Source of the DNA: Alphaproteobacteria bacterium
GTDB taxonomy: Bacteria > Pseudomonadota > Alphaproteobacteria > SMXQ01
DNA length: 64,000 nt
Assembly (NCBI GenBank): GCA_036500145.1
Contig: DASYCO010000055.1
Coordinates: 42,515 to 106,514 of the forward strand
Direction: 5' to 3'
Every line of letters starts with the position of its first letter. Position 1 is the stretch's first letter. Positions 8,906 to 15,569 of the stretch are shown piece after piece. The position numbers and the translations under genes were made by a program. Below the pieces are notes generated by a model that did no database searches, was not told the DNA's origin, and saw only the letters and a program-made list of their open reading frames with translations.

Positions 8906-11748
8906 CGGATCGTGAAAAGGCTCTCGGCTGAAATGCTTTGCTCGAGCTTCCCTTCAATACTCGCAATCAGCTCGGAGCGCTGAGCGTCGATGCGATCTTG
9001 TGCATCGAAGAGTGTACGACGCTTGCTGTTCCGTTCCGTCTCTAACGCCTTGACGACCTTCTGCCCAGCGAGCTTCTCTTCTAGCGACAACGCCGCTGTC
9101 GCTGCGCGACGCGCTTCCTTGATCTGGCGATCAATCTCCTTGATCTCACGCTCTAGCCCAACCTTGAGGTCATCCGCCCAACCGTCCAATTTATCGGCTT
9201 CCTGCTCAAAGAACCGCGCATTGCGCTCGGATATGGCTCGACGAATTTGGGTTTGCTGCGTTGCTATCGATTGCGTGAGGATTGGAGTCACCGACGCAGG
9301 TGGCAAAGCGGGCTGAGAAACCGAGCCAGCTATGGTCAGCAGGCGAGTTGCCGCCTCTGCGCTTAGCGCGGCGCCTTCGTCCGTTGTACCTGCGAGCAAC
9401 AAATGGTCTTCGCTCTGACCAAGCGCCTCAACCGATAGTAAGGACACGGCTAACCAACCCGATTTTCCCACAAGTGGCTCGATCTGGGAAATTCGCCCTT
9501 CGTGGTTGGAATAGTCAAAGATCAGCTCAGCCGAGGGCAGCTCACGAGCAAGAGCACGCTGCACGATGGCCTCGCCTAGCGGGTGCTGAATGCGAAACAA
9601 GTGCGCCTCGCCAGTACGCCTAGGAAGCTCGTAAAGTCCCGTCGGAACGCCCTCACGGTCCACCCAATTAGGAATTAGGTTCAGCCTGAAAGACGATGTG
9701 TCGAGAAACTCGGCGTCATCAGCCAATTCATACGCCGCGAGCTTCATAAGCTGCTGCTCAAAGTGGCTGAGATGTAGCTTCGTGTCCTCATTCCGAAGTC
9801 TCAGCTTCTCGCGAACCTCATCATCGAAATTCTCGAACAGCTTTCGGCGTGCGTGCGTCATCGCCTCGTTGATCTCAAGATTCAGCTCTTGCTGGAGCTG
9901 ATCGAACGCGGACTTGATTTCTGCTGTCTTCCGGCACTGCTGATAGATTCCCGCAATGCGCTTCTCGAAATCGACCCCAGACTCGATGGCGCCAAGCACC
10001 TCATCGCTGGCTCCAAATACGCCTTCGAATAGCTGAAACTTCTCCGACAGGAGTTCGTAAACGCGTTGGTCTGCCTCATTTTTCTGATTAAGGAAGTTGA
10101 CGACAACAACATCGTGCTTCTGACCGTATCGGTGGCAACGGCCAATTCGCTGCTCGATACGTTGCGGATTCCATGGAAGGTCGTAATTGACGACCATAGA
10201 GCAGAATTGAAGGTTGATGCCTTCTGCGCCCGCCTCGGTCGCAATCATAATCCTTCCCTGCTCGCGGAAATAATCGACCAACGCGGAGCGCATATCTGCG
10301 GTCTTTGAGCCCGTGACTCGATCGGACCCCTCGTGACGAGACAACCATTCTTTGTAGATCGCTTTGGATTCTTCATCGGTATTCGTCCCGTTGAAGAGCA
10401 CGATCCGATCGGAAAACGGGCTGTCCCCGAGGACACGAAGCAAATAGGACTGAGTTTTACGAGACTCCGTAAAGACGATTGCTTTCTCGTCCGCGCCGAA
10501 CTCTCTCGCCTTCGCAAACCCCATTTCCAGAGCCTTGAGCAAGGCCCGGCCTTTGGCGTTCTGCTCAATAGAGGTTGCGAGGGCGGCAAACTCACGAAGT
10601 TCGGCAATCTCGGTTTCGAGCGCACGCTGGTCCGCCTCAGTCAGCAGTTCCTCGTCGTCGTCAGGCCACTCTTCCGCCGTTTGATCGAGCGCTTCGTAGT
10701 CTTCGTCGAGTTCCTCGGCCAGCGACTGCGTCGGTCTGCTCTTATCGAGCCGCTTTTGAAGTCGATTTGAAATTGATGAGAGAGCGCCCGCGATAGCGAA
10801 TGTGGATGAAGCCAGCAGCTTGCGAAGCACGAGCGTCATCAGAGAGCGCTGACTCGCAGGGAGAGCCTGGAGGTTGTCTCGCTGCAAGTATTCCGTGACT
10901 AGGTTATACAGTCGGTCTTCTTCTTCATCGGGGCTAAACTCCTCAAGGATGGCATGGCGTTTTGTATAAGGGACGTATGCCGTCACTTGTCGGCGCAATG
11001 TTCGGTGACAAATCGGCTTCAATCGCTCTCGCAGAATCTCAAACGTCCGCTCTTGTGAGAGATTGGCGAACTGTTCACGGAAGCTTTTCAGGTCGCCAAA
11101 AGCGTGCTCATCGATGAAGCTCACTAAGCCAAAAAGTTCCAGCAGCGAGTTTTGCAAAGGCGTCGCCGTCAGCAGCAGCTTGTGCCGCTCAGCAAGCGCC
11201 CCTTTTAGAGTGTTGGCGATCACGTTTGAGGGTTTATAGACGTTTCGCAGCCTATGAGCCTCATCAATTACTACCAAATCCCACGGGTGAGCGTGAACGT
11301 CTGCCGCCTTGTTGCGGGCAAATTGGTAGGAGCAGATCACTACGCTGTCCGCGCAGTCGAAAGGTCGGAAATGACCTGACTTTATGGCCGCGTTGTACGA
11401 TTTGGATTCGAGGATCGTGCAGGGGATGAAGAACTTCTCGTTCATCTCTTGATGCCACTGCTTGCGAAGGTTGGACGGGGCGATGATGAGCATGCGCCGC
11501 CTTCCCTCCGCCCAGCTCTGGGAGATGACGAGCCCCGCTTCAATCGTTTTGCCCAGGCCGACTTCGTCCGCCAGCAACGCGCCCTTTGACAGCGGCGATG
11601 CAAAAGCAAAGAGCGCGGCATCCACTTGGTGCGGATTCATATCGACCTGAGCGCCCGCGACGGCCACGGCCAACCGCTCGCTGCTATCGGAAGAACGGCG
11701 GCGCGTTAGATCACTGGCAATGTATTTGGAATGGTAGGCTGTGATCAC
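8890..11748 (-). CDS. SNF2-family (Swi2/Snf2) DNA-dependent ATPase/helicase with about 390-aa uncharacterised C-terminal extension ending in a coiled coil, 952 aa
   Basis: Motif I LADEVGLGKTIEAG, motif II VIDEAHRLRN, TATPLQNSL, C-terminal helicase lobe FTESR and QRIGRCHRYGQ. GTG start overlapping the stop of the RHH gene (GTGA). Its stop overlaps the AIPR start. Confidence 0.8.
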   Translation of the reverse strand: MITAYHSKYIASDLTRRRSSDSSERLAVAVAGAQVDMNPHQVDAALFAFASPLSKGALLADEVGLGKTIEAGLVISQSWAEGRRRMLIIAPSNLRKQWHQEMNEKFFIPCTILESKSYNAAIKSGHFRPFDCADSVVICSYQFARNKAADVHAHPWDLVVIDEAHRLRNVYKPSNVIANTLKGALAERHKLLLTATPLQNSLLELFGLVSFIDEHAFGDLKSFREQFANLSQERTFEILRERLKPICHRTLRRQVTAYVPYTKRHAILEEFSPDEEEDRLYNLVTEYLQRDNLQALPASQRSLMTLVLRKLLASSTFAIAGALSSISNRLQKRLDKSRPTQSLAEELDEDYEALDQTAEEWPDDDEELLTEADQRALETEIAELREFAALATSIEQNAKGRALLKALEMGFAKAREFGADEKAIVFTESRKTQSYLLRVLGDSPFSDRIVLFNGTNTDEESKAIYKEWLSRHEGSDRVTGSKTADMRSALVDYFREQGRIMIATEAGAEGINLQFCSMVVNYDLPWNPQRIEQRIGRCHRYGQKHDVVVVNFLNQKNEADQRVYELLSEKFQLFEGVFGASDEVLGAIESGVDFEKRIAGIYQQCRKTAEIKSAFDQLQQELNLEINEAMTHARRKLFENFDDEVREKLRLRNEDTKLHLSHFEQQLMKLAAYELADDAEFLDTSSFRLNLIPNWVDREGVPTGLYELPRRTGEAHLFRIQHPLGEAIVQRALARELPSAELIFDYSNHEGRISQIEPLVGKSGWLAVSLLSVEALGQSEDHLLLAGTTDEGAALSAEAATRLLTIAGSVSQPALPPASVTPILTQSIATQQTQIRRAISERNARFFEQEADKLDGWADDLKVGLEREIKEIDRQIKEARRAATAALSLEEKLAGQKVVKALETERNSKRRTLFDAQDRIDAQRSELIASIEGKLEQSISAESLFTIRWNIA

Positions 11749-12002
11749 CCCTTACGCTCCTCGCGCATCGGGCGCTTCCGGTTCACATGATTGTTGGCTT
11801 GGTTACTACCAGCCACATGCACGCGCATAAACTCACGAATGACTTGAACCCCGGGTCGATCCTGCGCGCGGCAGGTTTCAAGAAACTTCTCTCGAAGTTC
11901 TCGCTCCACTCTAATGCGCAGCCCCGAATTTTTCATCATAGGCGAAGTGTATCCAGTGGATACACCGTCTACTAGCAAAAGCGCATAGCCCCCCAAGCCC
12001 AT
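11745..12002 (-). CDS. small ribbon-helix-helix (CopG/Arc-like) DNA-binding protein, 85 aa; first gene of the defense operon
   Basis: Core LRIRVERELREKFLETCRAQDRPGVQVIREFMRVHV has the beta-strand / helix / G-turn / helix pattern of RHH repressors. Its stop overlaps the SNF2 start. Confidence 0.45.
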   Translation of the reverse strand: MGLGGYALLLVDGVSTGYTSPMMKNSGLRIRVERELREKFLETCRAQDRPGVQVIREFMRVHVAGSNQANNHVNRKRPMREERKG

Positions 12003-12289
12003 CCTGAGATTGACAGATGTTAACCCGCCGTTCGACGCAGCCGAGCTTACGGAAGATATTATGGTGAAGCCGCGTTGGGTTGACGTAGCGGTTCGTTATC
12101 AGCATGCGAGGTAACCGCTTAGAGCTGTCGTCGCGTAATCGCTGGACTTCCCACTTAATAAGAGCGTGCATGCTGGAAGAGCGGGCCGCTTTAGGACCTC
12201 CGCTCCTGCCTGATCGGCGGCATCGCCTATGAGGCTTTCGTCGGTGCAAGCGCCGCAATCTCTGCGGTGCCTAAACCCGGAGGTCCAAA
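12003..12289. promoter_or_regulatory. divergent intergenic region, presumably holding promoters for the RHH-SNF2-AIPR-mod-res operon (leftward) and the DUF3489 gene (rightward)
   Basis: A 287-bp non-coding gap between divergently oriented genes. Inferred only; no motif identified. Confidence 0.25.
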
Positions 12290-14999: not shown

Positions 15000-15113
15000 A
15001 GCCCCGCGATCCTCCTTCTCGACCAATAGATTTGGTCTCCGCACGGGAAAACCCCCAGAAATCCGGGGGTTTTCGCGAAATCTCTAAGCTTAGAGAAAGG
15101 AGCAAGGGTGGAT

Positions 15114-15189
15114 TGGTGGAGCCGAGGAGGATCGAACTCCTGACCTCCGCATTGCGAACGCGGCGCTCTCCCAGCTGAGCTACGGCCCC
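15114..15189 (-). tRNA. tRNA-Ala (anticodon CGC)
   Basis: The reverse complement folds as GGGGCCG-TA-GCTCAGCTGGGAGAGC-G-CCGCG-TTCGCAA-TGCGG-AGGTC-AGGAGTTCGATCCTCCT-CGGCTCC-A-CCA, including the G3:U70 Ala identity pair. Marks the island/core boundary with the GC jump. Confidence 0.9.
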
Positions 15190-15569
15190 AAACATCCCGG
15201 GTCGGAAAGCCGGCGGCGCCCGAGGGCGGGGGGCCGGTTTTCGAGGGCCGGATAATGTGTTGAGGGCCCTTTCCTTGTCAAGCGCCGCCAGCAGCTTCCG
15301 GCGACTGTTTCCCAATCATCACAAGGGCGTGGCGAAAAGGCCGCCGCCCGGGCCCCGGCCTTGCGCCAAAGGGGCTGCGCCGCTAGGGTTGCGGCCATCC
15401 GCCGGGCCTTCAAGGGCTTGGGCGAACAGCACAATTTCCCGCGCACGCGTGCCGACGGCAGCCAGGATCGCCAAAAGCGGCTGCCCGAGATGACTGCCTG
15501 ACCGGGGCGCGCCCTGGCTTTCGTCGACCCGCAAGTCGACGGGCCGCCGGCGCCGATAGAGAGGACGCG

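Follow-up and report, generated by a model that had tools for sequence, protein, structure and literature searches.

The window analysed here is a 64-kb stretch of alphaproteobacterial DNA, and our subject is the low-GC region that occupies its left side up to an intact tRNA-Ala(CGC) gene at 15114..15189 on the minus strand. Beside this tRNA lie genes for a DUF3489 protein, a DUF2924 protein and a large serine recombinase (LSR). It is very probable that this region is the right-hand end of one ~26.4-kb phage-derived integrative element that was placed at the 3′ end of tRNA-Ala by its LSR. We have located both boundaries of the island, found an empty site in a related species, and found the same backbone with other cargo at the same tRNA in further species. 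The LSR is linked to tRNA genes throughout its family, and contigs carrying relatives of the element in its attP form are present in metagenomes.

The open reading frames (ORFs) of the window, which is 100% identical to JGI contig Ga0376653_0000617, were checked with Pfam, PADLOC and PHROGs, and the tRNAs with ARAGORN. Two tRNAs were found, tRNA-Ala(cgc) at 15114-15189 (-) and tRNA-Thr(cgt) at 55991-56065. The 3′ end of tRNA-Ala, at 15114, points left onto the low-GC side, and its CCACCA end reads TGGTGG on the plus strand at 15114-15119, which is the shared core of the attachment (att) sites. GC content per kb is 0.499-0.590 over positions 1-15000 and 0.615-0.750 over 15001-64000, and at a finer scale the step falls between 14900 and 15350. 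An earlier inspection of the letters of the window (the sequence-only reading) had noticed an abrupt composition shift at a tRNA-Ala with its 3′ end toward the low-GC side; the GC profile and the minus-strand call of ARAGORN bear out both observations. Rightward of tRNA-Ala lie the core genes YggT, DUF167, FolD and ArgG. The order tRNA-Ala(cgc)-YggT-DUF167-FolD is kept, among the matches listed, in 19 of 32 distant alphaproteobacterial loci that came from a contig scan with the DUF167 neighbour and are at most 62% identical among those matches. Across the tRNA from YggT, no conserved gene is found among these loci. In a metagenome-assembled genome of the Dongiaceae (L010, 1200-8198), the DNA 3′ of the syntenic tRNA-Ala(cgc) has a GC of 0.575 vs 0.639 and no LSR; it is possibly another island at tRNA-Ala(cgc). 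Exact protein look-ups with YggT and with a 372-aa protein of the island returned the source contigs only.

The far end of the island was reached via the PNPOx orthologue of the source genome, which led to locus L044 (L044 coordinate = window coordinate + 23233). There, the host genes Ccm, PabC, PabB, PNPOx and a GC-rich EF-hand ORF are followed by a junction with AAGGGTTGGATTGGTGG at L044 11874-11890, and GC falls at ~11900. At the right junction, AAGGGTGGATTGGTGG stands at 15104-15119, and its final 6 bases are the CCACCA end of the tRNA. Both island ends carry AAGGGT(T)GGATTGGTGG, the last 6 nt of which are this same CCACCA end. The island extends from window position -11342 to 15113, with its left end (to L044 11891) lying 11.3 kb beyond the window edge and its low-GC remainder occupying 1..15113 of the window. 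It sits between the host PNPOx/EF-hand genes and the 3′ end of tRNA-Ala(CGC), with intact tDNA at one end and, at the other, a displaced fragment made of the last 6 nt plus flank (L044 11874-11890). The sequence-only reading had proposed a search upstream for a repeat of the tRNA-Ala 3′ end. The 24-nt string has no second copy within the 64-kb window, whereas its first 6 nt together with a 10-11 nt flank do recur outside it. A long tDNA repeat was expected because the expectation was based on tyrosine integrases; the idea was dropped, as the far junction shows a short core only.

That the tRNA marks a genuine island boundary, as the sequence-only reading had it, is confirmed by the empty site of a related species with 86% identical FolD (contigs L040/L041). 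In this species the host order up to tRNA-Ala is the Ccm cluster, PabC, PabB and the PNPOx-family gene, whose stop codon lies 13 nt from the tRNA-Ala 3′ end. Beyond the tRNA, the empty-site sequence diverges from the right arm of the island. The relatives listed for the DUF167 neighbour include no empty site, and it was FolD homologues that gave one instead. The sequence of tRNA-Ala is identical in the four genomes compared, with the island present or absent.

Two further species, L038/L039 (FolD 87%) and L043 (FolD 83%), have the DUF3489-DUF2924-LSR trio at the same tRNA-Ala. The distance from the LSR stop to the tRNA is 183 nt, and the source and L038 elements are 83% identical over 156 nt of it, contiguous to the tRNA. 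The left end of the L039 island could be read from the same ENA contig (L127), where PabB and a 362-aa ORF precede ...GGGGGT-TGGTGG-TGCTGCCAGTCTTGAGCGAACCAGTCTCC..., followed by a leader 90% identical to that of the source, a ParB-domain methyltransferase (ParB-MTase, 94%), DUF5681 (87%) and copper/heavy-metal genes, which makes an island of ~33 kb. The host-side arm of this island keeps AAAGTGCGGATGTAA, which has its homologue at the empty site. Between attL and attR of this island, essentially only TGGTGG is shared. Such a short common core is the signature of a serine integrase, not of a tyrosine integrase. The cargo of these sister islands consists of a short pAgo-like SIR2 and Piwi pair, a Hachiman-like HamA and helicase, and a copper/heavy-metal cluster in L038/L039 (1-5826) and L127 (12600-21347), and of SbcCD-like genes beside BrxR in L043 (1-5642).

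Could a tyrosine integrase, and not the LSR, have placed the island at tRNA-Ala? The 3′ ends of tRNAs are its classic targets, as the Islander paper says explicitly (PMC4383910). The island does contain the remains of one. As the sequence-only reading had recognised, the enzyme is broken, leaving only an 82-aa C-terminal fragment at 1738-1986 (-) (Phage_integrase 2.8e-8, profile positions 103-167 of 172). An overlapping 95-aa ORF in another frame (1955-2242, -; no Pfam match) may be the frameshifted middle of the same gene. The fragment is 13 kb away from tRNA-Ala and beside its own tRNA-Thr(CGT) relic at 2566..2613 (+), a stretch of ~47 nt that covers the anticodon loop and everything after it through CCA and differs by 2 mismatches from the gene at 55991-56065. 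The relic has the opposite orientation to this real tRNA-Thr gene 53 kb away and no second copy; it is the att site of the tyrosine-integrase element. Moreover, there is no long repeat of tRNA-Ala, none being present at the left junction, and no tyrosine integrase occurs in the seen parts of the L038/L127 and L043 islands. Placement by a tyrosine integrase is extremely improbable, and the piece is debris or nested cargo, not the agent of tRNA-Ala integration.

The integration module itself is a compact operon. The DUF3489 protein (187 aa, 12290..12853, +; Pfam 2.3e-16), which has a weak MarR-like winged-helix N-terminus, is followed by the DUF2924 protein (133 aa, 12865..13266, +; Pfam 2.2e-37) and the 555-aa LSR (13263..14930, +), and the stop of DUF2924 overlaps the start of the LSR by 4 nt (13263-13266). 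Pfam thus agrees with the trio that had been named beside tRNA-Ala. In the LSR, the match to Resolvase (PF00239, 1e-37) spans the whole profile, and that to Recombinase (PF07508, 4.1e-11) covers residues 181-278. The LSR has CAIYTRKS as its catalytic motif, the serine being residue 15, and YTRKS with Ser15 and Arg13 is invariant in 80 of 81 aligned LSR sequences, the 81st being gapped there. These domains and the invariant motif support the earlier impression of an intact recombinase. Its matches in the PDB are the TP901-1, A118, SprA and phiC31 integrases, including the catalytic domain of TP901-1 (5e-18) and A118 chain 4kis_A over query residues 168-358 (3e-9). Zn_ribbon_recom scores 19.9 bits, under the cut-off of 25.3, and the region aligns to A118 all the same. 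No cysteines are conserved in this zinc-ribbon region (residues ~290-350) among the 81 aligned sequences, the only conserved Cys being at 8 and 34, and a C-terminal extension of about 200 aa follows it. This LSR would have catalysed the integration, a role that we assign to it with high confidence.

DUF2924 is likely a DNA-binding partner of the LSR, and DUF3489 is probably a regulator. DUF2924 is reported to match the RAMA DNA-binding domain in part (PMC11342252); neither its profile nor that of DUF3489 has a PDB relative by sequence. An 85-aa ORF at 11745..12002 (-) is outside the integration module: it heads the divergent cargo operon, its stop overlaps the start of the SNF2 gene, and only PHROGs of unknown function match it. 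On the other side of the module, the non-coding arm at the right end (14931..15103, +) contains two hairpins, one terminator-like on both strands at 14974-14990 and one at 15044-15077, which, once the element is integrated, probably act as terminators for the LSR operon as well as for the tRNA-Ala transcript. An equivalent pair of hairpins is visible in L038, L043, L045, L046 and L056.

The link between LSR and tRNA is not confined to tRNA-Ala. A scan of metagenomes with the LSR gave 591 relatives among the first 600 candidates, of which 80 loci were kept (47-69% identity), and a scan of IMG/VR gave 195 further relatives, of which again 80 loci were kept (41-60%); together these are 160 loci, metagenomic and viral, whose LSRs are 41-69% identical. 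In all 69 metagenome loci with enough sequence, the gene immediately upstream of the LSR is DUF2924, and DUF3489 is upstream in 47 of 53 (tblastn). The claim of the sequence-only reading that the trio is a recurrent module is well supported by this invariable abutment (69/69) and by its occurrence at the same tRNA-Ala in two further species. In 27 metagenome loci, the LSR stop is followed after 181-308 nt by a convergent tRNA, which is on the opposite strand and has its 3′ end toward the LSR; 10 anticodons are represented: Ala(cgc), Ala(ggc), Met, Lys, Val, Thr(tgt), Gln(ttg), Gln(ctg), Ser(gga) and Ser(cga). IMG/VR has nine more loci with such a tRNA, adding Thr(ggt), so that the pooled set has a convergent tRNA 171-308 nt downstream in 36 loci, with 12 anticodons. 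Going by typical tRNA gene density, we estimate that well below 1% of loci would have a tRNA by chance within any one stretch of 350 nt and in one orientation. A neighbour-joining tree sorts the LSRs according to the type of tRNA, and its Ala(cgc) clade consists of the window, L038, L043, L045 and L046. The LSR family is predicted to target tRNA 3′ ends, with a clade-specific choice of tRNA.

How the LSR family may recognise its targets is suggested by the att arms. The attR core at 15104..15119 (+) consists of AAGGGTGGAT, the element-side P arm, and TGGTGG, the tRNA end, and repeats L044 11874-11890. The left P′ arm has the pattern TGGNGG-N6-CAGTC-N3-RGCGAAC-NN-GTCTC, then TTCCCTG..CAGGGAA. 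This pattern is also found 209-513 nt downstream of the LSR in L049, L053, L068, L075, L091, L098, L107, L118, L147 and L156. ParB-MTase and DUF5681 come next after it in L049, L091 and L118; the right end is here joined to the left end, which means an attP form (circular or phage genome) or a tandem array. The first 6-11 bases of each such arm match the 3′ end of the tRNA of the sister clade (TGGCGGAG for Ser, TGGTGG for Met/Val, TGGCTG for Gln), and the RGCGAAC block resembles the T-loop-coding TCGAAC of tRNA. Two large clades have an even closer pseudo-tRNA arm, GGATTCGAAC-NNN-CGGTCC. The left arm thus reads as a conserved mimic of the tRNA acceptor end and T-arm.

The pseudo-tRNA arm also occurs in loci where no tRNA accompanies the LSR, which we call type B. 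L077 identifies it as the element's own P′ arm: the pseudo-tRNA is the attL of a 6.1-kb element, its attR is a full tRNA-Ser, and the two share TGGCGGA. The flanks differ between close relatives among these tRNA-less loci. Two other explanations of type B were set aside. For integrations into non-tRNA targets, Rfam found no non-coding RNA at these loci; for arms that would be displaced tRNA fragments of resident islands, L104 was unsupportive, with cargo between the LSR and the tRNA. In one contig (Ga0209023_10000010; L118 and L101), two LSR elements stand ~38 kb apart in tandem at one tRNA-Val, which follows the second element, and downstream of the distal LSR come an attP-like hybrid site and ParB-MTase, which suggests that elements accrete at one tRNA. 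Near L112 ~6042 and L094 ~4166, attP-like or P′-arm sites lie 3.6 and 2.8 kb upstream of the target tRNA-Ser, which implies either tandem arrays or mini-elements that consist of nothing but the integration genes.

GAGAC.GACTG stands on the element side of the core in several relatives and, combined with the other arm, creates a GACTG-N14-CAGTC symmetry centred on the GG of TGGTG|G. In the source element the symmetry between the P and P′ arms is weak; it is clear only in relatives. The crossover would fall at this GG (tRNA nt 72/71). On this basis the attP for the tRNA-Ala element is predicted to read ...GCAAGGGTGGATTGGTGGTGCTGCCAGTCTTGAGCGAACCAGTCTCC..., and the predicted junctions after excision are ...GAGAAAGGAGCAAGGGTGGATTGGTGGTGCTGCCAGTCTTGAGCGAACCAGTCTCC... 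for attP and ...GGTAAGGGAAGGGTTGGATTGGTGGAGCCGAGGAGGATCGAAC... for attB. Between the left att arm and the ParB-methyltransferase gene lies the leader of ~0.8 kb, of which the sister island has a 90% identical copy. Inside the left end, seven AACAGGGAA-type sites stand within ~640 nt (L044 11927-12563, window -11306 to -10670), and several GGGATGAA repeats also cluster in the leader; exact copies of AACAGGGAA are absent from the 64-kb window. The AACAGGGAA sites are candidate binding sites for DUF2924, DUF3489 or DUF5681, and both kinds of leader repeat are candidate arm-type or pac sites.

We argue for the following mechanism. The family has a fixed backbone, which consists, on the left, of an attP-derived arm, a ~0.8-kb leader, a ParB-domain DNA methyltransferase and DUF5681, and, on the right, of the DUF3489-DUF2924-LSR operon, with the target tRNA at a distance of 170-310 nt. 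The LSR would have recombined attP with an attB formed by the last nucleotides of the tRNA gene and its T-arm region. The incoming element would re-supply nt 72, the discriminator base and CCA, plus a terminator hairpin, so that the tRNA would stay intact. Between its backbone ends, the source copy holds defence cargo and the wreck of a tyrosine-integrase element in place of a terminase or other phage structural genes.

The left half of the island could be taken for something else. A 12.4-kb LSR element (about 2725-15113) next to a separate, unrelated tyrosine-integrase island leftward would fit a GC step from 0.50 to about 0.55 near 2600, the tyrosine-integrase fragment and 47-nt tRNA-Thr relic at 1738-2613, and the break of the Logan assembly contigs at 2571-2597, at the relic. 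It would also fit an inverted second copy of the P-arm 11-mer, AAGGGTGGATT, at 2725..2735 (-), 13 nt past the ResIII stop; this 11-mer has 2 matches in 64 kb vs 0.01 expected, the other being the P arm of attR at 15104-15114 (+). We consider two such neighbours unlikely, as the att-core direct repeat brackets the whole 26.4 kb, and in the attP-form contigs the LSR end is directly followed by the far-left set of P′ arm, leader, ParB-MTase and DUF5681. The same far-left set is also the left island end in a related species at this tRNA, and the tRNA-Thr relic has neither a second copy nor a full tRNA-Thr inside the island to go with it. These points make the tyrosine-integrase piece nested cargo or debris within a single element. 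The two inverted copies of AAGGGTGGATT bracket the 12.4-kb segment of restriction-modification (R-M) genes and LSR.

A different question is whether this single element is still mobile. The sequence-only reading had added that the element may still be excisable, which at present can only be inferred; present-day excision seems possible to us, though we lean slightly against it. In favour of mobility, the three integration genes, both arms and the 0.8-kb leader are all intact. Several observations tell against an LSR-placed mobile element. No recombination directionality factor has been identified, and neither a circular junction nor an empty site of this particular element was found, the IMG/VR scan for an attP junction of the Ala clade being empty. 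The zinc-ribbon match is sub-threshold, and the four cysteines are missing across the LSR family. The source repeat, at 16-17 nt, is longer than usual for LSRs, and conservation across the family does not extend to the P arm beside the tRNA, which leaves the P′ arm as the main support of the attP model. Finally, the divergence of the backbone between species (78-94%; LSR 90%, DUF3489 78%, DUF5681 87%) resembles that of host proteins (63-97%; FolD 87%, CcmF 87%, PabB 84%), and the copy could therefore be old and vertically inherited.

It is conceivable that the island was indeed placed by the LSR and is by now an old relic that no longer moves and is passed on vertically, a 'grounded' prophage remnant whose cargo differs between species by later recombination at a fixed locus. 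This would agree with backbone identities that fall within the range of host proteins, with the lack of any terminase or structural gene or attP circle among our finds, and with the decayed tyrosine integrase inside. The intact integration genes, att arms and leader speak for a mobile element instead, as do the non-coding arms, which are 83-90% identical between species while host intergenic DNA beyond the tRNA aligns poorly. The empty site in one related species is clean and scar-free, and relatives occur in attP form in metagenomes. We regard the relic as a serious possibility that falls somewhat short of being probable.

The LSR element family is, to judge from its gene content, phage-derived. 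In L080, ParB-MTase, DUF5681, the large terminase (TerL; PHROG 38, 2.9e-104), DUF3489, DUF2924, LSR and tRNA-Met follow one another. The block ParB-MTase-DUF5681-TerL-(DUF3489)-DUF2924-LSR is found in dozens of IMG/VR contigs, where the order LSR-ParB-MTase-DUF5681-TerL occurs too. DUF5681 stands directly before TerL in dozens of relatives and is kept in the source island without TerL. A block of this kind of ~6-7 kb recurs in L132, L141, L163, L172 and ~40 other IMG/VR loci, as well as at L080 5876-11677, and some of the contigs measure 5-8 kb. This compact TerL-LSR block may represent a prophage end that recurs, or else a minimal integrative element able to package itself. Relatives of the LSR are also found in cultured phages, namely AcaML1 (50% over 64% of the query), Ralstonia phage YO134_1 (52% over 56%) and Wolbachia phage WO (33-39% over the full length).

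AcaML1 of Acidithiobacillus caldus (JX507079) is the closest described relative. As in the source island, a DUF2924 protein (Gp4, 1.9e-49) abuts the LSR (Gp3) upstream, and the 50% identity of the two LSRs lies in the N-terminal 64%. AcaML1 is integrated in 'srrA' (ssrA/tmRNA) with 10-bp direct repeats, and tyrosine-integrase elements in the same A. caldus table have repeats of 45-77 bp (PMC3826726, Table 2). Its GenBank record ends in ...ATGGTGG, which is the same CCACCA-type core. Unlike the source island, which has 26 kb, no structural or terminase genes found, and defence cargo, AcaML1 is a full phage of 59 kb that has structural genes; its annotation splits the recombinase into two ORFs and shows no evident DUF3489 gene upstream, and its target is tmRNA and not tRNA-Ala. 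Wolbachia phage WO, besides its LSR, has a DUF2924 gene immediately upstream of the recombinase (PMC10299305). It differs from the source island in being a full phage with a eukaryotic association module. Among its att sites, we know of none reported in a tRNA gene.

The phiC31, Bxb1, A118, TP901-1 and SPbeta SprA integrases share with the source LSR the domain order and a short common att core. They target protein-coding genes or intergenic sites. The source LSR family differs from them in its targets, which are tRNA 3′ ends, the lack of the four zinc Cys, the 200-aa C-terminal extension and the DUF2924 partner gene, which is always present. Islander-type islands, which are made by tyrosine integrases, resemble the source island in that the tRNA is intact at one end and its 3′ end is copied at the other, an integrase lies beside the tRNA, and the cargo varies. 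Their repeat is about 45-77 nt, as against 6-17 nt here with a serine recombinase; the tyrosine integrase by which Islander assigns a tDNA site is represented here only by a pseudogene with its tRNA-Thr relic. Phage satellites and defence islands (P4-like, PICI-like, tycheposons) likewise combine conserved integration and packaging-related ends, swappable defence cargo and a tRNA site, and from these the source island differs in that its DUF5681 resembles a small terminase by position only. According to the tycheposon preprint, an LSR is used by 27 of 937 elements. A large LSR-discovery paper never mentions tRNA (PMC10083194), and DUF2924 is hardly mentioned in the literature searched. A small serine recombinase of Ralstonia phage phiRSM reportedly uses the 3′ end of tRNA-Ser. 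The linkage of an LSR to such a site is, in view of AcaML1, not unprecedented; to our knowledge, it has not been described as a property of a family.

From left to right, the island contains the ParB-domain N6/N4 methyltransferase, DUF5681, a 331-aa ORF, an Mrr-type nuclease, a Septu-like PtuA/PtuB pair, a STAND-TPR protein, a 372-aa ORF, the tyrosine-integrase remnant, the type III R-M/AIPR/DrmD-like operon and, last, the DUF3489-DUF2924-LSR operon. The 372-aa ORF (598-1716, -) has no match in Pfam or PADLOC, and the 331-aa ORF (L044 15261-16256) none in Pfam, PADLOC or PHROGs. The latter, standing after DUF5681, is not a truncated terminase. No remnant of TerL is found in the island by tblastn, and none of the island proteins tested matches a structural PHROG.

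The defence operon next to the integration module (2749..11748, -) consists of four genes, all on the minus strand: a type III restriction subunit (2749-5433; Pfam, PADLOC REase_III 2.1e-194), an N6/N4 methyltransferase (5430-7064; Pfam), an AIPR/AbiU-like protein (7061-8905; Pfam, PADLOC AbiU 2.4e-22) and a DrmD-like SNF2 helicase (8890-11748; Pfam, PADLOC DrmD 3.9e-205). No single named PADLOC system fits this combination of type III R-M, AIPR/AbiU-like and DrmD-like SNF2 genes. Further PADLOC matches are to PtuA/PtuB-type proteins (PDC-M01A 2.9e-211, PDC-M01B 5.7e-105) and an Mrr-type type IV restriction enzyme, and several anti-phage systems are hence clustered on one variable locus. The PADLOC matches uphold the earlier claim that the defence operon is cargo of a mobile element, and the type III R-M/DrmD/AIPR operon can now be described as the cargo of a defined 26-kb element with known ends.

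We tentatively propose that the LSR family recognises two universally conserved parts of tRNA genes, the T-arm (TCGAAC) and the acceptor end (CCA), through the T-arm mimic of attP (RGCGAAC or GGATTCGAAC), that small changes retarget it to other tRNAs, that the elements stack, and that TerL-less members are satellite-like, cargo-swapping vehicles; this goes well beyond the placement of the source island and may prove wrong. If true, TerL-less members would keep only the integration and ParB-MTase/DUF5681 ends and swap defence or metal-resistance cargo between them. Textbook and database practice assigns integration into tRNA genes to tyrosine integrases, and here an abundant LSR family is tied to tRNA 3′ ends. 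The attP arm, the DUF2924 partner and the tRNA linkage provide a new signature for island-finding software. For genome engineering, the family would offer serine integrases with natural targets that virtually all bacteria conserve, and for the biology of the Alphaproteobacteria it would account for a class of their defence islands.

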